Notes under the pieces: model-generated
Seen by the model: only the letters and a program-made list of their open reading frames with translations
What the model was told of the DNA's origin: nothing
Database searches by the model: none
Made by a program: the position numbers and the translations under genes
Assembly: GCA_012295275.1 (NCBI GenBank)
Contig: CM022671.1
Coordinates: 32,426,001-32,490,000, forward strand
From: Chrysomallon squamiferum
Lineage: Eukaryota; Animalia; Mollusca
Reading direction: 5' to 3'
Length of the DNA: 64,000 bases
In this document: piece after piece, positions 1 to 64,000 of the stretch
How the letters are laid out: each line of letters begins with the position of its first letter
Position numbering within the stretch: the first letter of the stretch is position 1

Positions 1-3000
1 TTTACTTGTGAAATTATGTGTTGGAGCTCCAGTGAGGCAGAGACGAAGTCATCACCAAACTCCGGTTTCACCAGCAGCACCAACCCCAGCGGCCAAAGCT
101 GTTGCCAAGGCTCTAACAAAACTTCTTGCTAATGGTCTGTTGTGGACTCCTCCACCATATGCTCCTGTGCCAAAGCTCAGGTATGTTTTTATTTCAAAGA
201 TTTATAATGTTGTTAGAAGAGTTTGATGAATATTGATTTAAGGAAATGTTTATGTTCCTTATATCCGATGTTTGCCATTCTATGATGATGAAAAGTTGAC
301 AAGCATATGTCTGAAAATAGGTTTGTAAGAAAAACTTTATCTGAGAGTGAATCAAAAGTACATATACTGCATATATGACTGGATTAATGTAGTAATCTGT
401 AAATGACATTTTAGCCTATTATAATAATTATTATTTATTTCTCTTAGAAAGAAGTTAAAATGAAAAAGAATATTCTTTTCAAAATGAAAAATAGCATTAC
501 AGTGAAAGCTTTTAGATTTTCAATTTTAGAAATCATTAGACACAGACTGTTAATTTTCTAGTTTGGTTTTGATGCATGATGTTGGGGGCAGCATATCTTC
601 ATTTCTTTTAATGTGTTTAAGAAAATTGTTTATTATTTAACAGGTGAAAAACAGCATTTTGTTTTGGGTGAAAATACATATTAATAAAAATGTTTGAAGA
701 CATAATTATAACTTACATTTACTGATGAATATCAGTAAAGTACACAGTGATGATTAAATAATAGTCAAGCACGTGTCTGAAACCTTTGAAACAAACTAAT
801 CTAAGTTGTACCACTTTGTTTAGTTATGTGTGTTTATAAGCTGTGCTTTGTTCTAAAATTTCTGGAAGCAGAGGATAATTTTTCATTAAATATTTAATTT
901 TTATTGTTTATGGCAATCATTTATGCATCTTTTCTAACTAAAAACATCTTATTTATTTAATTATTATTATTACAATTATTAAATTATATTTTTTTAAATT
1001 CTTATAACTTGTTTAAATTTTTTTATTATTATTTAACGGGTAAAAGAAAGCATTTTGTTTTTGGTGAAAATATATATTATAAATGAAAATGTTTGAAGAC
1101 ATAATTATAACTTACATTTGCTGGTGAATATTAATAAAGTACAAGTGATGATTAAATAATAGTCAAGCACATGTCTGATAGCTTTGACTGAAACAAACTT
1201 ATCTGAGTTGTACCACTTTATGTTTATAAGCAGTGTTTTGTTCTAAACTTTCTGAAAGCAGAGGATACTAATTTTCCATTAAATATTTAATTTTTGTTTA
1301 AGGTAATCATTTAGGTATCTTTTCTAATTAAAACATTTATTTAATTATTATTATTATTATTATTTTTTTTTTTTTTTTTAAATTCTTGTAACTTGAGGAA
1401 AAACTTTTTATTATTTAACAGGAAAAAGCATTTTGTTTTTGGTGAAAATACCTATTATTAATGAAAATGTTTGAAGACATAATTGTAACTTTCATTTACT
1501 GATGAATATCAGTAAAGTACACAGTGATGATTAAATAATAGTCAAGCACGTGTCTGAAACCTTTGACTGAAACAAACTAATCTGAGTTGTACCACTTTGT
1601 TTAATTATGTGTCTTTATAAGATGTGCTTTGTTCTAAAATTTCTGGAAGCAGAGGATAATAATTTTTCATTAAATACTGAATTTTTGTTGTTTACGGTAA
1701 TCATTAATGTATCTTTTCTAGCTAAATTTTTATTTATTTATTTTCATATTATTATTATTATTATTATTATTTTATTATTATTATTATTTAATTTTTTGTG
1801 AAATTCTGTATTAAACCAAAATACAGAAACTTGTCATAGAAATGTTCCATGAATATGTAATAAGTATTAAACAGACAGAACTCACGGTGATCAAATGCAG
1901 CATAAACATATTGCTCAAGCACATCTTTAATGTTACATGTTAAATTTTCAGGTTGACATTCCTGGTTTGTTCTGTGGGATTCACATCACCTATGTTGTTC
2001 CAGAAGAAGCAGCCCTATCATTTGATGTTGCAGATGTTTGAAGCATCAGGAGGCCAAGATGCTTTGTTCCAGTATGTTTGTGTATTTTAATTTTCAAAAC
2101 AAAGAAAATAACATAATTTACCATCAAGTATTTTTTTTTTTTTTTTTAATTATTTGAAGGAATGTTTCAGTGTCATTATAAATTAATTATAAATAACAAA
2201 TATTTAAGTCATTAACCATTTTCTCATTAAGGTTATAATTTTTCAGTGTTCTTTTTATGATTTTTGAAAAATTGTATTATAATTATTTTATTTTATTTCC
2301 TGGTACTCAAATGATGATTTAAATGTCAAGCACGTGTCTGATAAATGCTTTGATGAAACACATAATCTGAATTGTACCTTTATGACAAACTTTCAGAAAA
2401 ATGTTAAATACATATGTAATTAAGATAGGTTATAACATTTCTTATTATGAAAATTGGTAGTATTTAAAGGTATCATTAGTGTAGAAGCTGTATCAACATT
2501 TACAATAACTAAAAAAAAGCATGCATTTCATAATAAATTAAGGTAAACAAGTTCTCTGGTATTTCATTTTAATAAACATTTTATGTCAGAATGTTCTTAA
2601 ATGATACGATAAAATAATACCTAGAGTCATTGAAATGTTTCTTTTTTGTTGTTTTTCTTCAGAGATTTTTAATTTTATAATATTTAATTCTTTTTTTATT
2701 TTTTATATATAATGTATTTTGTAAATGTTTCTATTCTACTCTTCAGAGCTTTCTCATGGGCTTTGTCAATGGATGGGAAAGTTCCATTGACAGATGGACT
2801 GGAACATACAGAACTTCCAGGTTGGTGCCTTCTTCAGTTATTTTTTAACAGTATGTTAACTGATGTATAGGTAGCAGCACAATGTCTTGATTTCTTGCAC
2901 TCCATGATGATTATTTACAGACAAGCATATGTCTGAAAGTTTTTGAAAGACACCTTTATTACCTGAGAGTGACAAAAGAGTGTGCTACCTATAGAAACTA

Positions 3001-3076
3001 GAAATAGTTTATAGTTTGGTCTGTTTTTGTGCTTTAGTTTTATACTATTCACCTTTTTATTTCATTTTTTCCTGTT

Positions 3077-3138
<62 letters not shown>

Positions 3139-6100
3139 ACTTTAAAATATTTTGGTTGTTAAAAAATTGTTGTTTTTTTTGTGTTTGATTTAACTATTTT
3201 CATTAATAGATGGAAAGATAATTTCATCTGTTGTCAATCTTAGATAGGAGAAAGAGAAATTTGTTGATGAATTTTCAAGTTGTATTTTTTTATTTCTGTA
3301 CTAAAAATATGGTAGATGCTCAGTGATGATGAATTTGACAAGCATATATCTTAAGTATTTTGAAAGAAATATTTTGTCTGAGAGTTTACTGCCAAGTAAA
3401 ATGTGAATGATTTAAATCGTATACAACTCTTCATGTTTTCGTGTAGACATGTTTCATGTAGTTTTGTCAGATGTGGACAGTTGTTGATGTTATTCTTGTT
3501 ATCACTTATTCCATTTTGCACTTTACATAGGACATATTACTTGGTTATTTTTCATATATTCAGTGGAAAATATCAGAAATCCATTTCATTTCATTGGCAA
3601 GTTTTTCATAAAGCAACAGTGGATGATTTTTAAAAAGCTGAATTTTGTGTATTTGTCGATCAATATTCAGTTCAGTATGTTCAGTGATAAATGCTCAATG
3701 ATGATGAAATTGACAAGCATATGTCTTAAAATGTTTTGAAAGATAAATGTTTATCTGAGAGTATACAGTTGAAAAACAAAGCATTTAATAATGTGAATAG
3801 ATTTGGTTTCTATGTGTCTGCATGCATTGGAATTTGCTGGTTGATGGCTAACAAGTCTATATTTTTCCTTCATTCTTTTTCAGATGGATCAGGTGAATTT
3901 CTAGATGCCTGGCTGATGCTGGTAGAAAAGATGGTCAACCCCAAAACTGTGCTGGAATCAAACCACACCCTACCAACCAAGTCATCACAACCTGGTTTCA
4001 CTCCTTTCAGTCCAGTCCAGTATCTCATTAGCACTCAGAAGGTACGTTCTCATGGGTTTCAGTAGAACAATAATTGAAGTTTCTGGGTACATTTACCAGA
4101 GAATGGATATAAATTGCAATTTAAAGGATAAAATTAAACAGTATTTGGATTTATCATTTATATTGTATGAAGTATTTAATCATAATCTTAATATGACATC
4201 ACAGTGAATCTTTATCATTGTGTAAACAAACAGTTTTAAAATGATTGAGATGGAGCTTGTCATCTTTATAACAGACTTTAACAGTTTATCATGCAGAATT
4301 AGCAAAGCATAACAGCACATTACATTACTGCAGTACAAAGAAATTCTAGGATTTTAAGAAATTTTATTTATTGTGTATTTAAATTCAAAAACAGAGTGTG
4401 TGGGTAATAATATTTCAATGTAACTTTGATATTACTGTTTCATTTTGTGTTATAGGCTGCCTTTCATGCTGTGATGAATCTGTGGAACAAACAGCCTTTG
4501 AAGGTTTATGGAAGTCGAATGTCTGAATCCATCCTTGCAATACTTTGTCATATTATCAAAGGAGAAGGCATAATAAAGGTTTGTTTAATTATCTAATTTG
4601 ATAGCATTGAAATTCTTATTAAGAATTTAACTATTAATTTAACTTATTTTTTCATAATTAATTATTGTTATTTAAAAAGATTATCTCCAGTTAAAAGTAC
4701 TGAACATTATACATGGTTTGTTTACCACTTATGACTAAATTTGATAGACTTATTTTTAAAATGTATAATGCACACTTTCATAACTCATTTTATATTTTAT
4801 CCTCAAAAATATGTATATCTTTTTCAGCAGCCTCACTTAATCTGTTTTTTTTCCAGTTAATAATAATCTTTATACAGGACACATTATATTAATATCTTTT
4901 TTTTCTATTTTTTTTTTTTTTGAAGGAACAAATGGCAAAAGAAAAAGCCAGTCAAGAAACTGGTGATGGGGCTATTCCTTCTGCACCTCCACTAGTGGCA
5001 CAAGTTGCCAATAACCTGATCACAGCCTCAGTTCCATCTGCATCTCCTATCTCCGTCCAGAGACAAGAACCTGAAGTAAATGAAGGCTTCCTGCAACAGG
5101 TAGGCAGTGAAAAGATTAATGTATACAAATAAACTGTTACTGGAAAGTATTGGAAGGAAAATTCAAATTATTATGTTCTTGACCGACACAATAGTTTTAT
5201 TAGTATTATTATTGTTATTTAATATTATATTTTAAAGAGATTTTATTACTATATTTGTTAATGTTTAATTTTTTTAATACATTAAAAAAAATGGTTGTCA
5301 ATTTTAATAAACATTAACGTTCATGTCTGCTTTTCATTTTATTCCTGTTCTCAGAATTAGTATTTTATATCATTTATGTTCATTGTATTTTACTTGGTAA
5401 AAAGATACTCAGTGATGATGAAATAGACAAGCATATGTCTTAAAAAGTCTTGAAAGAAAATTTTATCCGAGAGTCTTCTGCCAGAAAAAAAGCCAGTTAT
5501 TAGTTTGAACAATTCTGACAAAATTTCTGTCATTAAGGCACACACACATATATTTACATGGGGTGATATTTATCATTTTCTGTTTGTTTGCAGCTTATTG
5601 ATATGGGTTTCAGTAGAGAACACGCCATTGAGGCACTGAGGCATACAACTACTCTGGAACAAGCCACAGACTACATTCTGTACCACCCTCCACCATCCTT
5701 ACCTGTAAATAACTTTTCTGAGAGTTTACACTGCACCCACACATTCCTGTTTATTTCAGTATACAACATACGTAATGTATTGTGAAACAGAATATAAATT
5801 AAAACTTAATAAATGCATTTTCAATTTTTGAGTTGACTGTATGCTTACCTGTTGTGATAACACCACAATTGGTAATACTACTACTACTACTAATAATAAT
5901 AATAATAAATAGTATATTAAAATCAGAAAAATATTTCTAATTGTTTATCTCAATGCTTTCAGCCCATTGCACAAGGTATTGACATGACTGAAGAAGATCA
6001 GATGATGAGAGCCATTGCCATGTCTTTGGGAGAGAATGTTGTAATGTCCACTGACCAGGTAAATATATCACTGCTTTTATTATTATTGTACTGAATATCT

Positions 6101-9100
6101 AAAATATTTAAAGGAATTAAAAAGTGATAAAAGAAAGATGATTGGGACACAGATATTCAAGGAAATAAATTTTTCAATCAGTTATTTTATTTCATCTTTG
6201 AGATTCAAAACCATTATTTGGAAAATGACTGTTGGATTAATATGAATTCAGAAATTTTGTATTTTATTGTACAAATCTTATTTTGTACAATTTCTATATA
6301 CTTAAAAATTATTATTATTTTTTTAAAAACATAGGAAGACACAAAGAAAGAAGAAGAAAAAGAACAAGAGAGTGAGACAGAGAAACAGGAAACTGAGGAA
6401 CCTCTAGACAAAGAAGTCCTGGACAACTTCACAGAAAACATGATACCAGGTTTGCTTTATTCCAGTACAGAAATACACACCATTACATAAACTTTGAATT
6501 CGTTCATTGTTACTATCCTCATTCTGTAATTTATTACTACACTTTTTCATTAATTATTGAAGAATGTTTTGTTCATAACTGCTAAGCCATATATCTGTCT
6601 TGGCCTTATACAGGTATTGAAATTGGTATAAAAGTTAATGAAAATGTCTTTGCAAAAACACCAAGAAACAACAAAAACATTAAAATGATATGTATTACTA
6701 ATTGAGCATAGTAGCCATTGTATAAAAGTTGAATGTTTATGTATTAATATTAGAGTGCATTAGCCATCTATACAATTCTAAACCTGTAAATTAATTGTTT
6801 AAAAGTATAATAATATACTAAATCGATTGCTTTCTTTTTAAAGGATGCATGAAATTGTTGGACACTCTGCCTGAAACAGTTTACCGAGTGTGTGATTTGA
6901 TAGTTGTGGTTACTCAGAGAAACGGGAATAACTGGAGGGATAAAACATTAGCAACACTAGTACAAGAGGTAAGTTAAAACATGACATGAAAAATAAAGTA
7001 AAGTGTAGCATATGTATTGATGCTGGAGTGTACATAGTCCCAAATCAGCCACCACAGGTTTTTGTACATTAAATGATCTTAATGGTAGCCTTTACTTGCT
7101 GAGATTTATTTATTTTTAATTTTTAATTTATTTACTTAACATCAAAGTAATTTCTGTAACTGTTTTAGTTTAACAACTGTAAGAAAGAAAGAAAAAAAAG
7201 ATTATAATATTCCAGAACCTGATATTGGTAACTTAACAGTTCTTAAAGTTTGTTAAGCTTGTCACTTGCAGGGACTTCCAAGAATGCCATATCCTTGTTA
7301 TAATATATTAACAAATGTTTTCTGAGGGGTTTTTGTTCTTCAAGAATAAGAAGTTTTGTTTAATAATTATATTTTCTCTTCAGATCAAAGCATTGGGGAC
7401 AAACCTATTGAAGAAACTTGTTGATGAAACAGCAACAAAAGAACATCTTGAGAAACTGTTCAATGATCCTCAGTGTGTCAAATTTGCTGTACGCCTTCAT
7501 CTGCTGAGTCTTTTGTTTGAGGTAAGTTTGTTTTAATTATAAATAAATTAAATATAACAAGACTTTATTATTAAGCTGTATTTTACTTGTCAAGAAATTG
7601 ATCTTTTATCTTTTTTTAATTTTTTTTATTTGGAGTACTGGCAATTAAGAAAAACCAAATTCAGCCATTATTTAATACATTATAACTAGCAAAATGTCGG
7701 TATTGATAAAAAAAAAATATATATATATATAAACAATTACAATGAAGTCAATAAAATATATTTACAACTCTGTTATTACTTCCACAAGAACTTTCACAGT
7801 AATATTTAATGTGGATGGAAGATTGTATCACGGTAAGGCTAAAAAGTTTGTTTTAACTTCATACTTTACTTTCAGGAAATGATGATGGCTTGTGCTGAAG
7901 CAGTAGAAGCTGAAAAGTTGGTTGATTTATTAGTCCAAGTTTTACATGCTGCGCAACTCTCACTAGCTCAGGTCAAAGATCTACCCACTCCTAAGTAAGA
8001 ATGCTCATACAATTTTATTCTGTATTTAGGATGGTTCAGGGTGGCAAAGCATTGCTTTTAAATCCTCATTTTTATGTTTATTTTATACATGTCATCTGCA
8101 AGTCAAAACTGGTATTATTTTATTTATGTCACATTAATATATAATTATATATTTTTTCCATTTAGTTATTAGCATCAAACTGCTTTTTTTATTATGTTAT
8201 TATTTTTTTTTATTTTTTTTATTTTAGTACTAAAAATGTCATTTTCCTTTTCCATTCCTTTCAGATGGCTTGCCCCATTACTGTTGATGTTAGATCTGTT
8301 TGAAAAAGTTTCTGTGATATCTAAGAGAAAAATTCAAGCTTTAGCTGTCATGGTAAGTATGGAAAACCAGAACCTTCTGTTTACTGAAAAAATGCATGAG
8401 AAATTTCTAAATTCAGTGGGAGAAAGAACCCTTAAGATTTCTAAAACAAAAACAAAAAGATATAAGTAATATAAATAAAATAAATAGATATGAAATATTT
8501 AGAAAAAAATGTATTATAATTGCAGAAGGACTGCCACACATGGAAATGGTTTGATGACAGCAGTGGTCGATGGTGTAAATACAGTTTGAGTAACAACAAA
8601 ACCATAGATGATGCATTCAGAGCAGGGGAGACCAGCATCAGGTTAGTGAAGTTCACAGTCCATTCGTTTTTGTTTTAGCTACTAATTAAAATGACAGTAA
8701 TGTTTACCTTTTAATAAATGTTAACAAGATGAAGATTACAGTAATGTTTCAGATGTCAAAAGACAATTTATAGGTATGAAGCTTTATGTGGTTGCATGCC
8801 TATTTTGAAATGTTAAAATTCAGGGAATTTTTTTAATGAATTATGTATAAAGAGGTTGATTATCTTTAAACCAGTTTGTTATTTTCTAGATTTCAGGCTG
8901 GAAGGAGAAGATATGCTGTTCAATTTGGATCAATGGTTCAGGTAGGTGTTATTTATTTATTTTGATATTTTCCAGATTTTTTCTTTTTTTTTCTTTTTTA
9001 GAGTGGCATATTTAAATTTCTTTACATTATTTTAACCAACCCCTGTCACCAGTAAATACTGATGCTGCTTTTCACATGTTATTATCTTGGCTTGTTGGAA

Positions 9101-12100
9101 CTGTAAAAAAAAATTAGTTCAAATGATTTAGACCTCTACAAAGATAGTTCAATCAATTTTATTACATTTGTATAACTTACTTATTTCTGTCTATTTCTTT
9201 TCTTTTTTAAAACCAGGTGAATGAAGAAACTGGAAACAGAAGGCCAATCATGTTGTCACTTCAGACAGCAGAAGAGAAACCACTGAAGGAAGATCAGAAG
9301 GATAACAACAGAAATGAGTTGGAAAGTGAGCCGCCAAAAGGTACTTTTCGATGTTGGTGAATGAAATACACAATGATGATAATTAAAAACATAACAGTGA
9401 ATTGCAGCTGTTAATGATGCTTATTAGGCATTCCATAGAATAAAGTATGCACCTATTGGTGTACCTGTACCATAGCAATAGATTGATAAAAAACAGATGA
9501 ACAATTTCACTTGGAGTGAAGTAATATTAAAGTGTTGTTAATCTTTTTATCCAGCAGATCGTAGAATCATAATGCTAATAACTTAACAGTACTGTTTTGA
9601 AAACATTTTAGCAAAGGTTCCTCGTGAATTATTCAGGGAAATCTGTCCTTTGACAGCAAAAGAAAATTTTGTTTGCTAAAAATAAAACTTGATTGTTAAA
9701 AAATACAAATAACAAAATTAAATTGATAAATGAAACCATTTTTAATTTCTATTCTGTGAAATTGTTTCTTTGTTGATATGATTCTCAACTTTTAATAATT
9801 TCCCTCAAAAGTCCATATCCTTATGAATTATTAAGAGAAAGCCAGCTGCAAACATCTGCTAGTACATATTTTATAAATAAATTTGAAGTTACATTTAATT
9901 TCAGATTGGGCTTTATCATATTTGTTTTATCTTCTAATTTGTAGAGGATAAGATGGAGACAGAATATGAAGAAGAACACAAACAAGAGCCAGTTCAGGTT
10001 ACAGGACTGAATGATGAACAGATCACAACAGTGATTAGGTAAAACTTTAAATATTAATATAAATACAACATCATATTTAATGTTTTTCAAGATGTAGAGA
10101 CTACTACAATTTTATATGAATGCTAAAAGCTCAAGAAAAACCAGTCTAACCTGTTTTTAATGTGAATAAATTAAATGACCTAAGTATTTTCTATTATTTT
10201 ATCTATTATCAGTTATTTCTGATTTTAAAATCTGGTAATAATAAAATCTCCAGATTAAACTTTTTGCATCTAGTATGTTAATATTTTTGTTTGTTTGTTT
10301 GGAATTGTTCTTTTTGTGGGTTTTTTTCTCATCCTGATCTAGATTTAAAAATTGTTTTTCGTCTTCTTAGGTCTATTGTTGCTCTGATTGGAATCCCAGT
10401 GGATCCAGACACTCTGCACGCAGCCCTGAGGCTCACTCTTCGAATCACAAGAGTACACAAGTATGCAGTATTGTTTGCAGAGCTTGGTGGTCCAAAACTA
10501 CTGCTGTCTTTAACACAGGCATCAGGCTTTCAAGGTTTCATTTCTCTGACCAATCTGATTTTCAGACATATTCTTGAAGAACCATCTTCACTGCGGTATT
10601 GCATGGAAAAGGTAAATGTTTTTGATATTGACATACAAGTTATTTTGTTAATTGGAAATATTGTTATAAGTATTATTATATTGTTTATACAGGTAATTAA
10701 AGTATTGTTTGGGGAATGCCGATTTATATAAAATATAAATTACAGTGACACACTGAATATTCAATATGACTTTTTAATTAATTTTCTTTGATTTTTAAAA
10801 ACGTTTATTTTGTTTTTGGTTTGCTTATTTTAAAATAGTTAAGCTTTGAACATTGATAACATTTTTTTTTTTACTCATTTTGTTTGTGTGTAATAATAAA
10901 ATAAATAAATATGTATATGTTCACTATAAAATGTAATGATACATAAAGAGTTCAGTGAGTTCAGTGAATGATTGTATTTAAACAATGTATATTTGTATTG
11001 CAGGTGATGAGAAGTGCCTGTAGTGGAATAGGCTCCAGTTTAAGTGGGGTGAACACTGGAAGCATTGGATCAAAAGAAATGCACTACATGTTCCGTGTGC
11101 TGGCCCCAGCTGCCTGCAGAAACTCAGAAATCTTCTCTGAGGCTACTAAAGAAACCCTGCAGATTGCACTGCCACCGCCAAGCAAAATTATTCGAGGTAT
11201 TTCTTTGTTCACAGTTCTTAATACAAGTAACTAGTAATGTATTCATTTATTTACACTGTAAGGAATATGTTACAAACCACCTAAGTACCTTTAATCATCA
11301 TTTTAACATCTCTGGCAATTTAGTGACTGTGTTACCAGTCATGATCTACTGAATTAAAACAGAATCTTGATTTCAATATGCCTGTTGGTAGTAAACAGGC
11401 TAATGGAAATTCTAACTGTTGGTTGTATTGTTAAAGATAAGCTGTTATTTTATTTGAAAATGTTTTGATTAACAGATGAGGATGAAGCTCGCTACACCGG
11501 GCCCAGTGCTCCACAGATTCTGAAATGTTCTCCAACAAAACACATTGCAATCCTCATAAATCAGTCAATCAAGGACGTTGTGTACGATCTTCTCAATGCA
11601 CTGATTGTTAAGGATAATGTCAAACAAGAAGATTGTAAGCACCAAGTTTTCTTCCTGTAATGAGCATTAAGTGTAATAGAAAGGAACTGTTACTGTTCTG
11701 ATTGTGATTGTGTAAAATTAGTGTTAAAACAATTTCTTAGTTGTTGTATTAATTTGTACTGTCTAATTTGTTCAAAATATGATTCTTTGGAACATACTGA
11801 TAAAATGATCTTAGGCTTAAATTTAAAAATAATTATAATAAAGATTTCTTAAGATGCAATAATTTTTTAGAAATTAATAAGAACCTTTGGATTTTTCATC
11901 ATCAATCTTCAGTAATAGTTTTGTATGAAATGTTTATAAACTTGGCAAACATGTTTTTAATACAATTATTTGTATTTTAAAAAAATATATATATATATAC
12001 ATACATACATGTATAAAACATAATTTTTTGTCTTCCTGTTGTAGTGAATGGTTTTGAACTGAAACCATCACAGACTCTCGCAGAAGCCATTTTAGAAGTG

Positions 12101-15100
12101 GTGAATGAAGTGAATCGAGAACTTGGAGACAGAAACACAGGACAGGTTGTCAACTTGACAAGTACAGCTCAGCCTCAGGAAGAGGATTCATTGGTAGATA
12201 GATTATTGATTATTTCAACAAAACAAAACGAATAACAATTGTTTAAATATTTTTTGGATTTTTTTTTTTTTTTTTGTTGTCAGGATACTTAGTGGTTTGT
12301 ACAAAAAGATCTAGATAATAATTTCCCAGTTGGGAGAAAATAATTATAAATTAAAGAAAAATTCAGATATTTAAACCTTACTTGTTTTTGTATTTATGCT
12401 TTTAAACAAAAAATTTATTGAAGAATTTTTTTTATTTTTTTTTTTTTTTTTTTTTTTGGATGCATTTTGATCAACATAATACAAGACTGACAAAAATCCC
12501 TCAAATAAACACTATTATTTTTATTGCATAGGCATCAACAGAGGCAGCAGCCACTGGTGAAAGTGAAGGTGATAAAGATCAGAAGGATGTGAAATCACTT
12601 GAAGATAACAAGAAGAGACATCCTCTGCTGCCGAAGTCAGCTCTGTTACGTTTGTTATCAGAAGTGATAAAGTCTTACGGAAGCTGCACTCACTTGATAA
12701 CTCAGCATACTTACTATGCTGGCCAGTCTGAAATGGTTCCTGAGGTACATAATTTTTCTTTACTTTTAAAGGAGAAAAGAGAATTTGACAGTTTCTGTTT
12801 AATGTTTCTTTCATAGTTGGTGGGTAATGTATTTTCTGCAGTTTTTTATCTACACAGATTTAAGAATAAGTTGCCTCAAAAATATTGTAATGTTGTTTTT
12901 CTAATAACAGGACTGTACAGTATTGGCCTTTGTGATGGATAACCTTCTGCACCAGAAACAACCAACAGGAGACAAAGACTGTCCAGATTTATCTCGTGTG
13001 TTTATTGCCAGTATTGCATCATGTAACTATTGCCCTGAAGCTCAGAACACTTTAGTAATGGAAGTAAAAAGTGCTCTACAGAGAGCACTTATACTGCCAG
13101 AAAGTCAAGAGAAACATTCGAGGATTCAGGCTCTGACAGGAATTATCAGCACCATAATGGAGGCCTGTCCTAGTCCAGGCCAAGTGCAGAACCAAGTATT
13201 CAAAGGACAGCAGAGTATTATGAACAACATAGTAAAAATTCTTATCAAACGTGGCCTTGTCACAGACCTTGCTCGAATTCCTCACAGTATTGATCTGTCT
13301 AGTCCATACATGGCAGCAACAATAAATGCTGCCCTAAAACCACTGGAGACATTGTCGCGCAGTGTCAATCAGCCTATGCAGAGTGTTGTTACCAAGCCTA
13401 AAGAATCGGGTACAGCAGAAGCGACAACTGTGGATCTAGGTGGAACAACGATTGCAGCCGAGACTCCTTTGACAGGTTAGTGAAAAATTAGTAAGAGAAT
13501 AGACATTATTTTTATATCTATACAAGGATTAAGATTTTAAAGCTTTCATCACAAAGATTTTATACTTGTTAACAGTTAAATCAATAAAAATAAGAAGGCA
13601 CCTTGACGAATTCGAAACGGTGCTATATTGTAATTTAACGAATAATTTATGTAAGATACCAGCAAGAATCTGACAGTGCCTAATGCAGCTGAGAATAATT
13701 TGGCAGTGGAAGATAATACCAACTGATTAAATCAGTAAAAACAACAATACAAAGTGACATTTTTTAATAACATTGATGAAACCACTATTAAATAATTTAT
13801 CAATATATTTTTAGATACTAATGAAACCCCAGCAGAGCCGAATGCAACTGAGAATAATGTGGCAATAGAAGATGTTTCTGACAGTTTGTATCTGGAAGAT
13901 ATAGAAGAAAGCACACATCATGAGACTGTGGAACCTGAACCTGACATTGGACACCATGTATGTATTAAATGTTAATCAGATTGTCAGTGTACAGTCAAAC
14001 ATACTTGTTGAATTAGGCTGAATAATACATCAGGGTCTGAATTGATATTCAACTATGTTTGTACTAAGGTATTCTTATATAATGATGACATACAATGCAA
14101 GAAATTATTAAAATCGTTTTGAAAATTCTATTTGGATTTTAAAAATAAAATCTTATGTCATAAAAACTGAAATGAAAAATCTGAGGAAATGTTAACATTT
14201 ACAACTCTTTGATATTCAGAAACACTGTTTTTAAATTCTTTGCTTCACGTTTTACTGCTTGTGCTAGGGACATTTTTATTTTTTACCTTTTTTTTGGTAA
14301 ATCACAAGCAAATTTAGACAGTATAGTGTGTTGTGAAACCGAACTGAGAAAATAAAAATATTTACTTGTTGCAGAATGAAAATCAGTTGGAGCAGGTGCT
14401 TGACACGTTATTACAAGGAAATGAAAATGCTGAATCACAGGTTCTGGCTGATGTTTCAATGAATGTTGGTATGTTGTCAAATTATTCACTTTTCATGCGT
14501 TTATTATCATGTTAGTAAACATTATTCATTGATAACAGAATAGATTAAGCAAAAATGCTGTATATCAGAAAAATAATGAATGCATAGGTAAGTGAATTAT
14601 TCCAAACCATCTACAATAAATATTTATTTTTGAAGGTACAAATTTTGAAGTTAAAGTATTTTTAATTTGGGTAAATTACATATTAAATACACAGTTGAAC
14701 CACCTGGGGAGAGAGGAGGGACAAAAAAACCTAAAAAAAAAAAAAAAACATCATGTGTGTAGCTTAATATGTTAGATAAACATACCTGACACTACTGAAA
14801 TAGATATTTAACACTGAAATACAAGTGGAAGTCAAATTAACAGGTGAAATTTTTTTTTTCTTTTTCTGTGATCTAGAATCAACTCCCACTACACAGACAG
14901 CAAGTGACTTCCATGATGTGATTATTGATGTAGAGTTTGAATCAGTTGATGTAGGACAGCACGACTCACAGATGGTCACACAGGAAATATCAGATGTTGA
15001 AGATGAAAATGATGTTCATGTTGAAGGTATGTATTATGCACTTATTATTGTTTTTTTGATATTAGACATGTTTCAGAAGAAGGCCCAGTGGTGTTACTAC

Positions 15101-16704
15101 AACAAAAAGAATTTTAAAATATATATACAGTGAAACATTTGTATCAATATTTTCAGGGATAAGACACTTTGAGAATTTGCTAAACATGTTGCAGTGAACA
15201 TTAGTAACACAATGTAATGTTTTGTTTATTGTAGATGAAGGAAATGTAGATGGTTCACCTGAAAGTGCTTCAGAAGCTGATGATGATGAAGATCCTGACA
15301 GAGAAGAACATGATGACGATGATGACGATGATGATGATGATGACGAAGATGATGAAGATGATGAGGTATTATTTTATTAATTTTTTTTCTAATTGAATTG
15401 AATTTTTATCTGCCTCAAGTAGAAATAATTATCCTACTTTTTGGTATGCATTTTAAAGGCCTTAGTATGAGGGAAAATGTTTCAAATAATATGACGACCA
15501 TTAAGCAAATTTCACTGATTTGTTGTTGCAGGGCTCTGATATGAATGCTGACGATGATGACTACTATGATTACCAGGATCGGGTAACAAACTCGATGGTT
15601 CCTGGTTATGAAGATGATCTTCTTTTCCACATGGAGGACATGTTTCCTTCCAATACATCAAGTTACAGAATTGCAGCTCCAAGCTACAGAATTGGTGGAG
15701 GTGGGTGTTCACTGACAACAGAATATGCTGTTCCTGTTTGGTTTCATTTACTAAATCAGTAATATGCATGACTTTTACCAGCAGTTCAGAAACTGATTTT
15801 TTTTAATTTTATATAGCACCTCTGCACCTTATTTTTAAAAAGCAGTTTGAATCAACAAATAAAAAGAAAAAAATTAAACCAAATATTTCAGAAATACAAC
15901 ACATTTCTCTTTACTTCATTTTAAACTTGTATTTAAAATTAAATTAAATTTAGATTTGGAGTTTCTTGTCTTTATAAATATCTTTTTTATTTATTATTAT
16001 TCCATAATACAACTTACCAACTACACATAAATGTAACTTTATTTTTTATTTTTTCTGTTTTTCTCATTTAAAAGCAAGACATAAAAATGATGTTCACAGA
16101 ATATAAATTCTAAATCTGTCGACCACCTTAATTTCATGCAAAATATCATGCATGCAATAAACAGAGGATTATGGCTTACCTCAAAATTTGTTTCTGTTGT
16201 TTGAAAGTGGGGAGATATTGAGAGTGCAGCACAATTTTGTTTGATATTAACAAAAATAACCTTTGGCACACATTGTGTTTCAGGTGGTGGTCAGCATATA
16301 ATATTTAATGATAATGCACAGATCAGAACTTATCAGTTGCCAGTGGCTCTTCATGACAATGATAATGGCAGTGATGGAAGTAAGTTACTGTCATGTTAAA
16401 AAAAAAAAAAAAAACATTTTTTAAAGTAACCAATACTAAAAAAAATAAAAATAAGAATATTTCAGAAATTTATATTAAGTAGTTTCTATTTTTTATTATA
16501 TTTACTATGGTTCGTGTCATTTTATTATCCAGATTTTTTATTTTAAATTTTAATTTTTAATTTTCGAAATTTTGTACAATATAATTCCATCAAAAGAATT
16601 TTAACATTAAATTTAAAGTACTTCATTTTTCAAATACATACAATAGTTACTTAATAGTTATGTTCCTAACAAAGATAATAAATTAAAGAAACTTCATAAA
16701 AAAC

Positions 16705-16744
<40 letters not shown>

Positions 16745-19700
16745 TCAATAAATAAATTTACTTCAAAAGATGTAATTAATTTTATTTATTTATTTATTAT
16801 TATTATTTTTTTTTTTTCCCCTAACAGTCCCAAGTTTGCCTCCTGCACCAAGCAGTGTGACAATGACCCATCCATTACTGGTTCGACAAACTGACCCACA
16901 TACTGTGATGGGTGTGGCAAGAGTGCATCGGGGAAATCGACAACGAGGCTCGTACAGACTGAACCCAACACAGACATTCCATGTTAATCTGCAAGGTGGA
17001 CGACAGCCCAATCCTCCAGTCATTCTACAGAGGTTAGTCACATGTGACATTAAATCAGATAAGACTTAGTCTTCATGTATGACTTGCAGCTGTTTGTACT
17101 TAATAAGAATTAGTTTCATGGAATTACAATTTAGGATAGTTTTTGTCAAAGGAATCTGGTTATGATGTTAACCATATCTGTATTGGCGTTCTGAAAATTG
17201 TCAAGAAATTAATAGATTATTATTGTTTTGTGTCAGTATTTTAATTCCCTTTTTTCTTAGAAGTATTTTTTGTTACTCCCTTTATATTTTTTTTAAATAA
17301 AATTGTTAAACATTTTTGTTATTAATATTTTTCTCTGTGTGTGTCTACTTTAGACTTCTTGGTCCAACAACAGCTTCTGACATTCTCCAGTTGACCGGTA
17401 CACTGACCACTCAGGCTGGAGGTCCAGCTCACACACGGGTCATCCTGGCAAATGATGATATGAGAGTATTTTCTCGACCAGAGGAAGAACTCTTTGAAGA
17501 CTTGTTTCAAGTAAGTGTCAGGGATAGATTGTTATTCTGAAAGGAGATTTTTGTTTTGTGTGCTAAGGAATTCTCCTTTGTTAATGTTTATTTTGCTATT
17601 TGTTTTTTTTGTGAGTGAGATATGTGGTTTGATCTATTGTGTTATATCATGTCCCAGGTTCCAAAACTAGGGGAAGCTGAATTTATTACCTTCAGGTTTA
17701 AGTAATAGATAACTTGTTTTTGTTTTGTATTTTTTCCCATTTTCTTTTTAATAAATACAAAAATATTTACTTAATGTTTTTTCTTCTTTTTTTTTGTCCT
17801 GACTTGCATTGTGGTTACAGTGGCCAATAGATTTTGTTAAACAGAATTAATAGTAATGAATTAGATTCAAATAACAGTATATCTGATTTTGAATCAGGGG
17901 GAAATGTAGGTGTTTGTTGTCATCTTAAACTTACTTCAGACTAGAGATCCTTACAAGTATTTAATATTATAACAAATATTGCTTTAGTCAAATAACTAAT
18001 AGCTTCTTATTGTTTTCTTTGAAGGAGAATTACCAAGAAAGTGGAGCTGTTTCAGGTTCTGGTGTTTTGTCTTGTGTTCCTTCCACTCTGCAACGATGGA
18101 CTGAAGAATCCAAAGTTTTAGATGGAGACAGTGTACACAACTGTGTGACAGGTTAGTCACTTCTTAATATTGCTGTTGCATTTAAACTAGTTCAGTGAAT
18201 AGACAAATTTTTCCTTAAACTGATCATTCTGTAATTAAAACTATTCCTCCCCAACCAAAAAAAAAACAATTATAATAAATATAATTTTTAACTTTTCTTT
18301 TTAAAAAAAATTTTTTTTTTTTTTTTTTATTACCTCTAGATCAAAGGCAATGTCATGGCTTGGGAGCCTTGAATCGTTGTCTTAAAATACATAAAAGTTG
18401 TATACAAATAATGACATAAAAACAGTTTTTTGGTTTTTTAAAAATCTCTGTTTGCTCCTACAATTAATTTCAGTAATCTAAATAATGATGATGGTTTAAA
18501 AATAAAGAATTAATAAAATAAAATTTAAAATACAAATTAAAAAATTAAAAATTTAAAATGATTGAAAATTATGTTAATTTAATATTTTAGGTATTTATAA
18601 AACCATTATATTCACTTATGGAAAATTTCAAGTTACAAAGGGAGACATTAGTAATTGTAGCTTAAAAAACATTTGACGACACTTTCCACCAACTGCTTTT
18701 GATGTGCTTGGTCTGCATTATGTCAGTTGAAATAAATTTTTAAAATTATTATTACAACAGCTTTAAAACCAGACATAATAAAGTGCCTTGTTAAAAGACG
18801 TGATGATGAGCTTGCAGAGAGGCGTGAGAAACGCAGAAAAGCAGCGGAAGAGGAAGGAAAGGATAACACAAAAGAAGTAAACAATCCTGCAGGAGCTACT
18901 ACAACCACAACAGTACTTATGTTTTACTTAATTTTTCTTTCTTTGCATTTCTTTTTTTGAAAAACAAATTAATCTATATTTTGAAATTTTTTCATGTTAC
19001 TTGCACTGAACTTATGAAGGGAAAAACATCAATATTATATCAATACTTTCTTGCCATAAATGATAAGGATACTTACAAATTCTGTTTGAATTTATATAAT
19101 TTAGCACTAAAGTTATATATTATTTTTTTTTTTAATATTTATTTATTTAAATTTTTTTGTCTTTGTCTGTCTACATATTTTCATCAAAAAAGATTATTTA
19201 TTGCACTTATAATAAATTCTCCCTTTTTTCTAGCCTTTTGCAACAACATCAGCAGCTGAGCCATTGACCTCAACACCTTTGTCCATTTCATCTGCAACAA
19301 CACCTTCAGCAGAAAATATGTCACGGCAGATCAGTAAGCATTTTGTACAGTATTTTATCATATATGTCATCACTCTTAATAAATTGTTGTTTGGTGAATC
19401 ACATGTCTCTTGGTCGTTGTTTTAGAGAAATATAATTTTTATTGTTGTAGTAAACATCTGTAATTGTATTATATAATTTAATTAAATTTCAGGTGTCAGT
19501 GAAGCTGTTGCGGCTGCCGAACGTCTTGCCTCAGCCATGGTTGAAGAAGTATTGTCAACACCTATGACCACAGCCATTGCAAGCACAGCAAGTGAAGCCC
19601 TGACAACACCATCCACCTCCAACACAACAACCACTGTGACCAGTACCAGCATCATTCAGACATCGTGTGCTGTGGCTCTTGCAGAAATACACGATTCCAT

Positions 19701-22580
19701 AGCGAGTGCAGCCAGCCAGAGTGCAGGAGCACAAACTTTAACCACTCCAGCCCAGCCTCTACCAATTACTGCATCGCAAGCTCCAGTGCCTCAGCCAAGA
19801 CGGTGTGTAGAATATTTAGTAGCTTTGTATGTGTTTGAGTGTGGGAAGCTGATAATATTTTACTTTATTTCACTTGTTTATTTATTATTTTAATTTCTGA
19901 TTTAATTTAATGAGAGAGATCAGATTCAAACTGATTCATAACAAAGTAATGTTTCTGCTTTTTTATCCCACCAAAGAAGAAATACAATTTTTTTTTATAA
20001 ACTTTTGTTTTAAAGATTTGTAGTCTGAACATGAAAATGTATGTATATGGAGATGCAGTTTATAGAGCACAGATGAGAGTTTTTTCCTTGCATATTTTGT
20101 TTACTGAATTAAAAAAAAAAAAATTCAAACAAGGCTTTTTGATTTTATTTCCAGAACACTTGCACAGAATGCCTCAATGTCCCCAACAAGTTTGGCATCT
20201 CTTCTGATGTTTGGTGATGAACGACCTATGGATTCCTCAGTTACTTCAACAGCTACTCCACCAACGACGTGTCCTGTGTCAGGTTCCAGAGTTGGGGAGA
20301 TGACAACAAGCACACCAACATCCAGTACTGACTCAGGTACATGTGCCCAGCCAACTAGTGAAACTGCTGTCACTCCAGAAGAAGTTTCTAACATCACTAA
20401 CTCAGATGCAGTTACTGTCCATTCTTCTGCCTCAGGTTAGTTTTATTTTTATTTTATTATTATAATCATTTTTTTATTTATTTAATTAATTAAATTTTAT
20501 TTTTAACCAATTTTTATTTATTTATTTATTTCAGGTGGTATGTTATTACATAGCAAATACATTATAATAATTTACTTACTATTTATTTATTATAACATTT
20601 GAAAAATCATTTCCATCCAATGCAATTAACTTAAGAAAATTCTGTATGTGAAATGTTTTGTGGATATATGTGTGAAGATTTTGGAAATCGTCCTTTCTGG
20701 CAGTTAATTTCTGAAATACCAAAAGGTTGACATTTAAATAAATTTACGGAACTTCATTATAATTTTATGAGGGAAAATAATTCAGGAGACCATAAGTTCA
20801 ACAATTTCTGATACAGTTGCCAAGATGGTTTAGTTTACAGTATTTTTTTTATTTTTCGTTTTTATTTATTTATTATTTTATTTTATTATTATTACTGTTT
20901 TTTTACAGGAAGTACTGATGAGCTGATACCTGCAAGTAATGCAGTTACCAGTGCTCTTGTTACATCGGGCACAACGACAATGTCCAACAACCTGCACAGT
21001 CTTGGAGCTCTCATAGCAGAGGTTGATGAGCTGATTGGACGGTCTGCTGAAACAACCACTACAACCTCAACCACCATTCAGAGTTCATCTCAGCAAAACA
21101 TGTTTGGAGGTTTGTTCTCTTTGTATTTTGTCTATCATCAGCCACCTGTTTTCTGTTGTAACGTGGTTTTACTGAAGTTGTCGTTTGGAAACATATTTCA
21201 GTATCAAAGCAGTTAAAGGAAATCACATCAAACAGACCTCTTCAGAATGTAGGTTAATTTGTATTTATCTGAAGGAATATAGTTTTCTGCTTAACTTACT
21301 GAATTAAACTAAATCTCTTAAATTTTGGTAGGTAAAAATTAGCATGCACAACTAACAGTTACTAAATAATAGTTCAAGAATGTTCATGTGAAAATGAGCG
21401 GGATGTTTAGTAAACATTTTTTGTTGTTTTTCCTGCAGAGGGTGTAGATCCATCATTTCTGGCAGCGCTGCCAGAAAACATTCGCCAGGAAGTGATAGCA
21501 GAACAGTTGAGACTGCAGCGCATTCAGCAGAGAGCACAGCAGCAGGCACAGAACACAGAGGCCATTGGAGGCATGGAAGTGAATCCAGAATTCCTCGCTG
21601 CTCTTCCACCAGCTATACAAGAAGAGGTTAGTGGCTTCTGCAGAATTAATAAACAACATTATTTTTAATATTTATTAGAAATATTAGTCACAATTTTGTA
21701 CTAGAGAGGAATGTGTTTTGAATGCATTTCCAAGAGTTCTAAAGTCTCTTGCCTCATAGCCTATCTTGCTTCTGTGGCAAATATTATTAATATAGTGAAC
21801 TTCAGAGCTTCAGAATATATGACTTTTTATTATTATTATTACTTTTTTTATTTATTTTTATTATTTTTAATTTTTTTTATTTTTATTATTTTTAATTTTT
21901 TTAATTTTAATTTTTAATTTTTTGTATTTTTTTAAAATTTTTGTTTTATTAATGTTCGCTTAACAGGTTCTTGCACAGCAGAGAGCTGAACAGAATCGTC
22001 TGGCCGCCCAGCAGCAGGCACCAGCCAACCCAGATGCTCCGGTCGATCCCGCCAGTTTTTTTGCAACTCTTCCGACGTCACTGAGGCAGCAGGTGCTGGC
22101 TGACATGGATGACAGCATGTTGGCAGTGTTACCATCAGACCTGGCCACCGAGGCACAGGAGCTGCGACGAGAATTTGAAGATCGACACCGCAGACTGATG
22201 CAGGAGCGGCTGTTTGCACAAGCCGGTGCAGCATCTTTATCTGCTATATTGCGTCATTCAGGTGCTCGAGAAAGAGCAGGTGTGAGCAAGGGGCAAACTT
22301 GGATCAGGGCACAATAATAAAAGCTAAAACCAGGGAAGGGGGTGGTATTTTTGGTGATAAATATATTTATAAGAAATTGGGCCAGTCAAATTTGAAGTTA
22401 ACTGTTGTTAAATACTCTGAGGATTGAGATTAATAATAGCACATTCACTTTCTTTTTGCAGTAAAGTGGCTGTGATCTGATTGGTTTATGTTACCAGTTT
22501 GTACTGATGGCTGCATGTTTGTAGCTTTAAAATCATGATTTATATTGATCAAAGCACAAGCTGGATAAATATAAAGAACA

Positions 22581-22631
<51 letters not shown>

Positions 22632-25600
22632 TTAAAATAGAAACCACAATTAAAACATACAAAAAACCAAACTCCCTTTTTACATTTCAATATTTTTAAA
22701 ATTTTATCTGTGTTTGCTTTACATGTATGTTGATGTCACATTCAGTGTAACTGTATTAGATGATAGGTATTTGTTGCCTCAAAAGGATTCCATAACTAGC
22801 AACACATATTATTGTTGATACCTTGTCATCAGTGTTGTAACGTATAGTTGTGTATCAGAATATGTTTATAAAACCATTAAATAATGGTGCAAGAGAAACT
22901 GCTTCCACTTCTCCTTCAAAAATTTGTGGTATTCTGAATAAAATGATACCCAGGTGAAGCAGATTAAGTTGGAAACACAGACAATAAATATAGATTATAC
23001 ATGTCTGTCTTTGGTAAACGTAGGTGAACTAAGATTAATAAGAGACAATATTTGAAGCCAGAATTGCCCTTTTCTTACCACCTGCTCAATTTATTTATAT
23101 ATTAGCTTTTGTTGCCTGCTTTTTTATTTTCTCTACCAGAAAATTATTCTGCAAAAAGCACTTGCCTTGTTTGTATTATTTTTTGTTAATAATACACCAA
23201 AATACAGAAATTTCTGCATATTCCTGCCACTGAAGCTTTTCATTTTGATTTAAAACTGATAATGATATTACAAAAGTTATTTCAACATGGTAATTTCATT
23301 TCTAAATCTTAATTTGAAATAAAATTTTGTTTTGTGTGTCAAGCTTTAGCAAATTAAGTAGAGGTTTAAGGAAGATTGTTTCCCGCTAAATATGTGTATG
23401 TGTGTGTGTTTATCTTTCTGTTTTGGGCCTACTGTAAATGTTGTTAATGGATCCTAATAGATGATTAAAGTAAAATTTAGCACTGACCAGACATTTTATG
23501 ATATCAGTAATCATAAATTCTTTGTTGCATGCCTTAAAGATTTGAATGTGCATTTTAGCAACAGGTTGGCCTATTGATGTTGGATACCTTTTTTGTAAAG
23601 TAATTCTGTTATTTAATCACTTTTTTTTTTTTTTTTTATGATAAACAGTTCTGATGATGTAAAATTGACAAGCATATGTCTTAAAATATTTTGAAAGATA
23701 AATTTTTATCTGAAAGCAGCAACTTAATGCAGATATGTTTCTTTCAGAACATTTTTTTAAATTAATTAAAACAAATTAAAATTCATTAGACTTACCAGAC
23801 ATGTTTTGCCAAATATAAACATAAGTCAGTTTCAATGTGAATCAGTGTGCAAGTATCCAAAAATAAAGAACTAGTTTTAGTTTATAACTCTAGTGTTTTT
23901 AGTTGATTAACAGTCTTAATCAAAATATTTATATCAAAAGAATACATGCACAAACAAATAAAACAGAAGTAATGTTAAAGGAACATTAAAAATAATACAT
24001 CTTAAATCTGTTATTGCAGGTCTTGCTGGTCGCCTTGGAACAAGGTATGCAATAAGAGCACCTCGAGGAGGGAGTCAGTGGGCATGGGGATCAGGACGCC
24101 TTGGAGTGCCAGCCAACAACAACAGCAGCACACTTAAAATGCGAGGTCGTCATCTCTTAGACCATGAGGCTCTCACCTGTCTTCTGGTGCTTCTTTTCAT
24201 TGATGAACCCAAAATAAACACCAATCGTTTCCACAGAGTATTGAGAAATTTGTGTTACCATGGTCCAACACGTGCATGGGTAATGCAGGCACTCTTGTCA
24301 ATTCTGCAGAAAACCAGTGAATGTAAAATTATAGAATCTGATGATCGAGGGAAAAATAAAAAGATAAAGGGTGTCCCTATGCAGACAGACTCTCCATTGT
24401 CTGTCAAAAGTGATATCAGGAATCAGACTTCTTGGTTGTCGGTCAGCTTAGAAGCTGCACTAGGGTGCCGTGCCAATGTCTTTCAAATTTCACGAAATGC
24501 TGGCAAAAAGCATGCCAATTCACCCAGTTCTAATGTTAGTATTCATATGCAGGCTGCCCCTGCTGTGTGTAGACATGTACTGGATACGTTGATATCTCTA
24601 GCCAAAGTATTTCCAAGTCAGTTTTTCCCTAGTTCTAAAGCAAAGGAAGTTCAAAAGTGTGATGAAGAGAAAGAGGCCGACAGCGGTAAACAGAAACAGA
24701 CTTCAGGTGGATTGTCTAGTCCTCAGGCGAGTCCTCGAGTTGCAAACAGGATGGATTCAAAACAGGACTCCAAAGAAGGAAAGAATGACACAGATTTCTG
24801 GGACATTCTGGTTAGACTTGACAGTGCATCTAGTAGTCGGAAAGGCAAGGGTGTAGCTAAAATGCATGGCGATGGTGATATGAATTGTGTGGACTATTCC
24901 AGATCTCCACTTGGTCATCTGATGAGTATGTTGTCACACCCGGTGATTCGCAAGAGTCAGGTCCTCACAGACCGACTGATCAGACTGCTAGCTTTGGTTT
25001 CCACATCCATGCCAGAAGCTATGCAGGCCACCAAGGCCAACATTCTGAATTCCTCAACAGCTCGCACAAGTACAGCAGCATCAGGACTTAATCCATCTGT
25101 GATGCTGCATCCCATTCTCCAACCACCAAAACCATTAGAAGGTATAGATTACAATAAAAATGAAATATGTTTCTAAGAATTTAAAAACCATATAAATTAT
25201 AATTTACCATAGATATCAGACAAGCACATCTTTAAAGAATCAGTTTTACATCTAAACAATTTTTCCTTTAGTTTCTTTCATTTTCTTTTTTTGTTTGTTT
25301 TTGTCAAAGGTGTGTACAAATCTAACTCTTATTTATTAAATACTGTATAAATATCATTCATTAATATGAAAATGATAGTGTCATTACATTATAAAATTTT
25401 AAAAACATTCTGATGGAATTGTAATTTCTTATTTATTTTCCCTCTCTAAAACGGTGGGGTGGTGGTGATGTATTTACAGTTTATTGAAAAAAAAAAATAT
25501 TTCTATTAAATTAAAGAACCCGAAGCAAGCAAGTCAGTGAAGGAAGAAAAAGTGCCTGAGATTGATGAAGAACCAGTTTTGAAAGATGAACTGCAGTTGG

Positions 25601-35669: not shown

Positions 35670-53424
<17,755 letters not shown>

Positions 53425-61944: not shown

Positions 61945-63985
61945 TCAGGTTTCTTCATTTTTTTCATTCAAAACATTTTTCAGTGCTGCTGCCTTGTTTT
62001 CGCTGGGGATACACAACTGCTGAAAAAGAGCCAACATTTGATTGTTTTTAGCTGCCAGGTTCAATCTATGATTTGAAACATAATGGCTGGAATGCGAAAA
62101 AATTTCACGCCCGTCCCAGTCCTTTGACAAGTACACTCTTCTCATCTTTGGCACTTTAGCATTTCGTCTTCTACCACTTTTGTTTTTTCTACATCTGGAC
62201 GTTGTCCACTTCTTGTGACCGACAAAGCCACTGTCCTTGTGAGTGAATGAAGATGCCAGTGATCCCCAGACCTGACTAGACAAGTTAAACGATTTCTGAG
62301 CTGCTGCCTTGTTGAGAATGGTCCTCTTACCATCATGTTCAGAACACTCCTCATAAGAAGTCCTTTCAGTCTCCTCTTGGTCCTTTGACCCGTTTCTATT
62401 GGATTTACCATGAGAGGAGAGCTTGTCACCATCACTCTCCTCTTGGTCTTTAGGCCCTTCGCTGCTGGATTTACCAAGAGAGGAGAGCTTTCCACTCCCC
62501 GTTCCATTGTTCAGACCTGAATTGTCAGTATTACCTGAATCAGTATTCTTTCTGTCACTGTCGCCAAAGCCAAACATTCTGAAGTTGTTCATGCCGTTTT
62601 CAGACAGAGGTTTCGCTAAGGGTGTTCCCTGAGGTGCAGCAATATCATCTCTGAAAAACACAACAACTACAGAAATGTTGTCACTCGAGCCTCTGTCTCT
62701 GGACTGATCAACAATTGCTTTGGCGACTTCGGATTTGCTGCCATGTGTTTTGACGTGGGTGTAGACGATGTCGGGAATGTCGGAAGGTTCGAGAACATCC
62801 CAGACGCCATCGCAGGCCAGGACAACGTAGTCTTCTTGACCATCCAGTTCAAAACTTGCCACATCAGCATCACTGCACACAAACGGCTTCTGGGTAACAT
62901 CTCCTGAAATGGTAACAGCAAAGTCAGTAATAATTATTTCAGATAACTTATTTCAGTGAAATTATTTAAACGTTTATGAGGAAATGGCTAAAAAAACAGT
63001 CTTAAAAAAACATTCAGAAATAACAAAGATGTGTATTATTTTATTTAATCAAGTCTGCACCAGGTTTAAAATGAATTACTTTGAGATAAGTATGTTAATC
63101 AGGTAACATTAATGCAGTAACGATGACAGGAACTGATCAATGATGACAGTAACTGACAACAATCACCGTAACTGACCAGTGAAGACAGTAACAGACCAAC
63201 ATTTCCTAGTTACAGACTATTTAAACCTAAGTATTCTAATTAATGATGAACTGACCGATAGCTCTGGACACTGCAATATTTCCATTAACCCTCCATGCTC
63301 CAAAGAAGATAACGTATCCACCCAAAGCTTCAATTCTTGATCTTTCATCCTGCAATTATTTCAAAAACTAAAATTGTCAAATATCTGAGTCAAACTATAA
63401 CTTACATTAATCAAAATAAACAACCCCAAAACTCATCACACCTAAATATATTAGTAAATACACTAAAACCGAGATCTCACTAGAATTAACAATTCCTGTG
63501 TTGAGTCAAATTAACAAAAACAAAACAAACCAACATAAATGTACACACACAAATAAATACGTTAAAATTGATAATACCTCAGTAGAATTAATAATTCCGG
63601 CTTTCATTTATTTATTACCCGAATAATTTATTATTAGTTATTATTTTAACTAAATAAAAGTCTCAAAATATTACTAATAAAATTATAAATGCATTATTAT
63701 TATTATTATTACTATTATTGTTGTTACTGTTGTTGTTGTTCTCGTCGTGGTTGTTGTAGTTGTTGTTGTTATCATTATTATTTTTATTTTTTTTCCTATT
63801 AAATCCATTTTTTATTAAATGTTTAGTACAAAAGCGCACACCTCTCTCTCTGGTTTGTGAGGTTCCATGATGTTTACAACACCTCCATTCTTCACCAGAA
63901 TGGCCTGGGAGTCACCCAGCCAAGACACATGGAGAGTGCTGCCTCGTATCAGTGCTGTGACACACGTAGTACCACTTCGCAGGTT
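61945..63985 (-). CDS. PPM1E: PP2C-family phosphatase PPM1E/PPM1F (CaMKP-N / POPX type), last three coding exons; 5' part lies outside the window
   Basis: Minus-strand exons 63985-63842 ([48 protein letters not shown]), 63349-63256 ([31 protein letters not shown]) and 62903-61945 ([14 protein letters not shown]...[13 protein letters not shown]...[12 protein letters not shown] plus a long tail with a basic patch). Probably co-orthologous to vertebrate PPM1E and PPM1F. Confidence 0.92.
63105..63200. repeat. Degenerate 21-bp repeat (ATGACAGTAACTGAC core)
   Basis: Four to five recurrences of CAGTAAC.GA. Confidence 0.65.
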
Positions 63986-64000
63986 CTGAATGAAGAAAAT

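Follow-up and report, generated by a model that had tools for sequence, protein, structure and literature searches.

Box C/D snoRNAs with a U27-like guide in HUWE1 introns of a mollusc are predicted to target the 28S rRNA site of vertebrate SNORD121

In this mollusc, introns of the HUWE1 gene carry ten box C/D snoRNA copies, six with the guide of U27 (hereafter U27-type or A copies) and four with an altered guide (B copies). Judging from the complementarity between guide and rRNA, we consider it highly probable that the B copies are box C/D snoRNAs guiding 2'-O-methylation of the 28S rRNA G equivalent to human G4637. A preliminary description of the same DNA had regarded them as candidate orphan snoRNAs, naming no canonical rRNA or snRNA that matched the proposed target, and had stated that a match to an already described snoRNA family with this guide would count against its reading. 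With G:U pairs allowed, the target it proposed coincides with the 28S position that SNORD121A/B guides in vertebrates (human Gm4637), and SNORD121A/B is such a family. One supposed orphan thereby disappears, and methylation of a specific 28S position close to the sarcin-ricin loop is predicted for an invertebrate.

The window, by which we mean the whole 64-kb stretch of DNA analysed, begins within the host gene, whose largest exon has its best named relatives in bivalves (Pinctada, 56%; Dreissena, 53%), one further protein reaching 84%. RNA contigs from runs X6 and X8 show joints at 176/1948 (180/1952 once the cut is moved by +4) and at 2071/2747. As these joints are separate, copy 2302 lies in an intron of its own. 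Splice joints and exon cover in both runs indicate that HUWE1 is expressed, the B copies being intronic. Four snoRNA copies share the intron at 181-1951 and three that at 2821-3882. The CpG observed/expected ratio of the snoRNA-bearing introns is 0.22. The relevant features are as follows (Rfam scores in bits).

1..31688, + strand: 3' part of HUWE1 (HECT E3 ubiquitin ligase), the host gene, from exon translations and homologue searches.
181..1951, + strand: HUWE1 intron with one U27-type and three B-type copies, from a splice joint and RNA contigs of X6/X8.
2072..2746, + strand: HUWE1 intron with copy 2302, from a splice joint and RNA contigs of X6/X8.
598..1726, + strand: three-unit tandem duplication carrying copies 740, 1139 and 1517, at spacings of 398-399 and 378-379 nt.
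740..811, + strand: B-type copy, first tandem unit, likely pseudogene; guide 764-775 intact, D box CTAA at 801-804, C' box 4 nt short; SNORD27 22.8, SNORD121A 20.6.
1139..1213, + strand: B-type copy, second tandem unit, with A at D'+4; C 1145-1151, guide 1162-1173, D' 1175-1178, C' 1184-1191, D 1203-1206; SNORD121A 34.5, SNORD27 26.4.
1517..1592, + strand: B-type copy, third tandem unit; C 1524-1530, guide 1541-1552, D' 1554-1557, C' 1563-1570, D 1582-1585; SNORD121A 26.1, SNORD27 25.6.
2302..2378, + strand: B-type copy, intact, alone in its intron; C 2311-2317, guide 2325-2336, D' 2338-2341, C' 2350-2356, D 2367-2370; 5-bp terminal stem; SNORD121A 29.8.
277..348, + strand: U27/SNORD27-type copy in the intron of the tandem B copies; SNORD27 45.5; 12/12 Watson-Crick pairs with the 18S 5' end.
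2899..2970, + strand: U27-type copy with the top score (SNORD27 51.6, cut-off 52).
3318..3385, + strand: U27-type copy with D' CTTA and a guide ending in A, from Rfam and box parsing.
3693..3762, + strand: U27-type copy with D' CTTA, from Rfam and box parsing.
5407..5474, + strand: U27-type copy with D' CTTA and D box CCGA, from Rfam and box parsing.
23648..23717, + strand: U27-type copy in a distant HUWE1 intron, with a C box starting with C and D' CTTA, from the profile and Rfam.

Elsewhere, the window holds a second gene (exons 39287-52972, + strand), which from its translation we take to be TRIM37-like, and the final exons of what is presumably a PP2C-type phosphatase-like gene (61948-64000, - strand). 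No tRNA gene was found in the 64 kb, and an Rfam match to mir-297 (42633-42705, - strand; 42 bits for a cut-off of 90) was discarded as a TATG microsatellite.

The B guide reads GTCAAGCACGTG-T-CTGA at 764, 1541 and 2325, with a variant, GTCAAGCACATG-T-CTGA, at 1162 (copy 1139), which confirms the guide letters previously given for the four copies. The U27-type guide occurs at 298, 2920, 3337 (where the final letter differs), 3712, 5426 and 23667. Allowing at most one mismatch, the guide pattern shared by both types has 15 matches in the window for 1.67 expected, a number reached by none of 100 shuffles, and ten of the 15 matches lie within box C/D frames. A profile built from nine of the copies recovered the tenth (23652) and nothing further above 15 bits. 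Among the U27-type copies, four of six have CTTA as D' box with an intact guide (3350, 3725, 5439, and 23680), a D box reads CCGA at 5467, and a C box begins with C at 23651. CTTA may be a tolerated variant that these copies share, or they may be a set of decaying copies.

Boxes C, D', C', and D in order, together with a terminal stem, are found in copies 1139, 1517, and 2302, but not in copy 740. The four good boxes previously attributed to copy 2302 are thus present, and the terminal stem of GTAC type described as proper to the subfamily appears in the predicted folds of three B copies, but is absent from copy 740. Whole-RNA folding energies of the copies are no better than those of shuffled sequences (z from -0.03 to -1.87). 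The preliminary description had overlooked the broken D box and shortened C' box of copy 740, as well as the tandem repeat. As a single tandem repeat with a unit of about 390 bp holds copies 740, 1139, and 1517, they represent one lineage and not three. From its boxes, copy 740 is probably dead, and copies 2302 and 1517 are likely to be active genes.

The 5' end of 18S rRNA was taken from another eukaryote (locus L011) and stands in for that of the host. Against it, B guides mispair at D'+5 and +12, with a G:U pair at +4 in three of the four, in agreement with the earlier claim of a misfit to 18S A27 at D'+5 plus a second mismatch. B copies thus lack the perfect D' guide for 18S A27 that characterizes U27/SNORD27. 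Duplex energies of the B guides are -8.5 to -8.8 kcal/mol on 18S and -16.0 (three copies) or -16.4 kcal/mol on the LSU site of the fragments L006 and L012 described below, whereas those of the U27-type guides are -16.7 kcal/mol on 18S (-14.9 for one copy) and -12.1 kcal/mol on the LSU site (-12.4 for one copy). The contig used here (L011:1-4652) is a eukaryotic rDNA contig within a bacterial assembly. It carries an LSU 3' end and an 18S 5' end, together with a 5S gene on the other strand.

Scanning the genome collection for sarcin-ricin loops provided seven LSU fragments, all from other eukaryotes. All four B guides pair at 12 of 12 positions (+2 to +13), with C:G at +5, with two of these fragments (L006 and L012), in which the 12 nt that begin 29 nt after the A of the sarcin-ricin loop read TATGTGCTTGGC. 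Complementarity to rRNA of at least 10 nt upstream of D', with a Watson-Crick pair at +5, is therefore present against L006 and L012. The other five fragments show one to four mismatches. The G opposite D'+5, 32 nt past the sarcin-ricin A, is present in all seven, which supports the original proposal, with its register, that a G would be methylated, and the site starts with CACG, the exact complement of B guide positions +2 to +5, in three. In L006 and L012, G, U, G, and A are located 14, 17, 19, and 47 nt upstream of the target G, which are the spacings of human Gm4623, Um4620, Gm4618, and Am4590 relative to Gm4637. By the matching register of the D' guide and these landmarks, the target corresponds to human 28S G4637. 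Out of 2000 trials with shuffled guides, 2 and 1 yielded a 12/12 site in 394 nt of L006, which extrapolates to about 0.01-0.015 over 6 kb (although this null overstates the surprise somewhat, as A guides already fit the site over 10 bp). The site is drawn as a variable helix strand in the Rfam LSU consensus. The LSU fragment of L006 also contains a group I intron (L006:62-373). Viral contigs yielded no 18S 5' end and a single match to the loop motif, which is not rRNA-like.

Several observations suggest that the B guide is likely to be under selection. Outside guide and boxes, copy 2302 is only 60-63% identical to the tandem copies (30/50 to 32/51 columns), and no homology of its flanks with theirs was detected over 150 nt on each side (local scores 22 and 21, for shuffled means of 25 and 19). 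Yet, its guide matches theirs at 12/12, 12/12, and 11/12 letters, and the chance of a 12/12 match at an identity of 0.60 is 0.60^12 = 0.002. In addition, the B guide retains a CpG despite the CpG depletion of these introns. A tree built with the guide masked (unrooted) separates B from A copies at 100/100 support, and the branch of copy 2302 is 0.51 changes per column long. The preliminary description had argued for a distinct subfamily, for an identical guide amid the diverged surroundings of copy 2302 and for selection on that guide, and all three claims are supported. The retained CpG further suggests a C opposite +4 in the host 28S. If so, copy 1139 would be partly decayed; if this position is a U, all four guides would fit.

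In assembled long-RNA libraries, the contigs that overlap B copies (644-874 and 1465-1695) are long intron pieces, with depths of 2.4 and 3.2 as compared to exon depths of 108 and 37.6. No mature snoRNA is apparent among the contigs over B copies in these libraries, which are silent on mature snoRNAs, and the guide of copy 2302 is covered by none of the RNA pieces listed. Run X5, which bears the same species label as the other runs, represents a diverged population or a close sister form, with 31 listed differences in 1-3050 that are absent from X2, X6, and X8 where covered. None falls in a guide or box and one lies directly before a D box; as the expectation for the guides was below one change, this pattern is no evidence.

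Could the B copies simply be decayed U27 copies, one of which mutated and was then duplicated with an unselected guide? Three of the four do form one recent tandem repeat, copy 740 has a broken D box, and the long-RNA contigs show no mature RNA. Copy 2302, however, has accumulated about 0.5 changes per column outside its guide and yet kept the 12 guide letters, the CpG, and four good boxes, and decay is accordingly a highly improbable explanation. We give almost no credence to a variant class of 18S rRNA whose 5' end would match the B guide, with position 27 still modified: the ordinary guide is kept in six U27-type copies, the variant would require a G at position 27, and a known 28S site already fits.

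The orphan reading, in which U27 offshoots were selected for a target outside rRNA (an mRNA, snRNA, tRNA, or other RNA) and the fit to 28S is a leftover, draws on the fact that U27 itself pairs over 10 bp with the 28S site, so that part of the fit comes free. Nevertheless, both changes common to all B copies (+5 and +12) improve the fit to 28S, from U:G to C:G and from a mismatch to U:G, respectively. Furthermore, guided methylation is known at this site, with a C at +5 of the guide, and the best Rfam family for three copies is SNORD121A. An orphan box C/D snoRNA has no antisense element to rRNA or snRNA, whereas the B copies form a 12-bp duplex at a known methylated site. Other candidate targets (another 28S stretch, U1, 7SL, and a tRNA-Ala) each seemed to us a poorer fit, and we hold the orphan reading to be very unlikely. 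A scan of metagenomes for a C box followed by the B guide and D' gave five matches, all judged to be due to chance (inside or among ORFs, without a box C/D frame), and thus no copy from a relative.

Box C/D snoRNAs act with the proteins fibrillarin, Nop56, Nop58, and 15.5K, and methylate the base paired at D'+5 of the guide. If the B copies function as 28S guides, their RNA would be released from the spliced HUWE1 intron and would assemble with these four proteins, as in the standard box C/D pathway. The D' guide would then pair with the stretch of pre-rRNA that lies 29-40 nt beyond the sarcin-ricin loop, and the base opposite D'+5 would be 2'-O-methylated.

Where did this guide come from? The U27 guide already pairs over 10 bp (+2 to +11) with the 28S site (-12.1 kcal/mol), with U:G at +5, so that a single U-to-C change would switch specificity and at the same time spoil the pair with 18S. 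Outside guide and boxes, similarity between B and U27-type copies is low: for 24 pairs, which are not independent, z averages 1.65 and ranges from 0.4 to 2.9, none reaching 3, as compared to a mean z of 3.15 among U27-type copies (comparisons made without an unrelated snoRNA control). Derivation from U27, as proposed in the preliminary description, is favoured by shared introns and by a guide two or three letters away, while the weak similarity outside the guide speaks against it and the unrooted tree does no more than separate the two groups. As two families interleaved in one gene, with an intron in common and nearly equal guides, would be an odd chance, we favour birth from U27: provided that the B copies do guide 28S methylation, they probably arose from U27 by local duplication. 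This may have happened either once, before the split between vertebrates and molluscs, or separately in the present lineage. On balance, we lean towards the view that this locus preserves the origin of an rRNA modification, in which a U27 duplicate switched target by one change at +5; either SNORD121 is an old U27 paralogue, or the same mark was invented twice from one parent guide. If SNORD121 is an old U27 paralogue, thought to be restricted to vertebrates, then an ancestral linkage with U27 survives in a mollusc. If the U27 origin is true, it would be a clear example of a guide moving from an 18S site to a 28S site via pre-existing partial complementarity, with parent and daughter in shared introns; it would be useful for the study of snoRNA evolution, although it involves no new mechanism.

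Rfam gave no match in the window at the gathering threshold (44 bits for SNORD121A and 52 for SNORD27); the families emerged at an E-value threshold. All four SNORD121A scores of the B copies (34.5, 29.8, 26.1, and 20.6 bits) are thus below the gathering score. SNORD121A is the top family for the matches at 1139, 2303, and 1512, with its guide aligned on the B guide, although its margin over SNORD27 is 0.5 bit at copy 1517; for copy 740, SNORD27 scores higher. SNORD27 scores are 35.5-51.6 bits for A copies and at most 26.4 bits for B copies. The U27-type copy with guide 3337-3348 has A at +2, like the SNORD121 consensus, and reaches 33 bits with SNORD121A while keeping U at +5. Given the low scores and this A copy, the Rfam match is a lead only.

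The study in which SNORD121A/B received their names (PMC1636440, Table 1 and Fig. S5) gives a 12-nt 5' guide, 28S-Gm4607 as the site, and UBAP2 as host, and the duplex published there has GUAUGUGCUUGG as its target, in the register of the B copies and with target letters that are nearly identical. According to a cross-species table, Gm4607 and Gm4637 are one site in two numberings; Gm4637 is entered there for human, mouse, and Xenopus, and left blank for fly, yeast, Arabidopsis, and Dictyostelium. Homologues of the SNORD121 guide are reported in chicken and Xenopus, the UBAP2 host being conserved in human and chicken (background on these snoRNAs and the site also comes from PMC11550049, PMC2653536, PMC4914119, PMC3890542, PMC11014333, and PMC6984369). 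As the mark is tabulated for vertebrates only, a guide in a mollusc would extend its range. By title and start of abstract, none of the papers naming SNORD121 among those searched deals with invertebrate animals, and our search, which most subscription papers lay outside, brought up nothing about this locus or about SNORD121 descending from U27. The label SNORD121A has also been given to a fungal RNA, whose predicted targets are different and which sets no precedent. A BLAST map in PMC3511168 places RF00086 at human LSU centre 4601, near the site; as we could not relate its numbering to G4607, this entry was not counted.

Compared with U27/SNORD27 (RF00086; yeast snR74; 18S Am27), the B copies share architecture, length, host gene, and one intron, and 9-10 of 12 guide letters plus the +1 letter are equal, but they have their own terminal stem and C' box, and mismatches with 18S at +5 and +12. 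Compared with SNORD121A/B (RF01191), their guide has other letters at +2, +12, and +13, three copies also departing at +4, their host is HUWE1 instead of UBAP2, they score below the Rfam cut-off, and they occur in an invertebrate whereas the mark is tabulated for vertebrates. As both the cut-off and the host gene are missed, we file the B copies as box C/D methylation guides and leave orthology unclaimed. Nevertheless, like SNORD121A/B, they have a single D' guide of about 12 nt, identical at +3 and from +5 to +11 (also at +4 in copy 1139), with C at +5, the same target G in the same register, and several intronic copies within one host gene.
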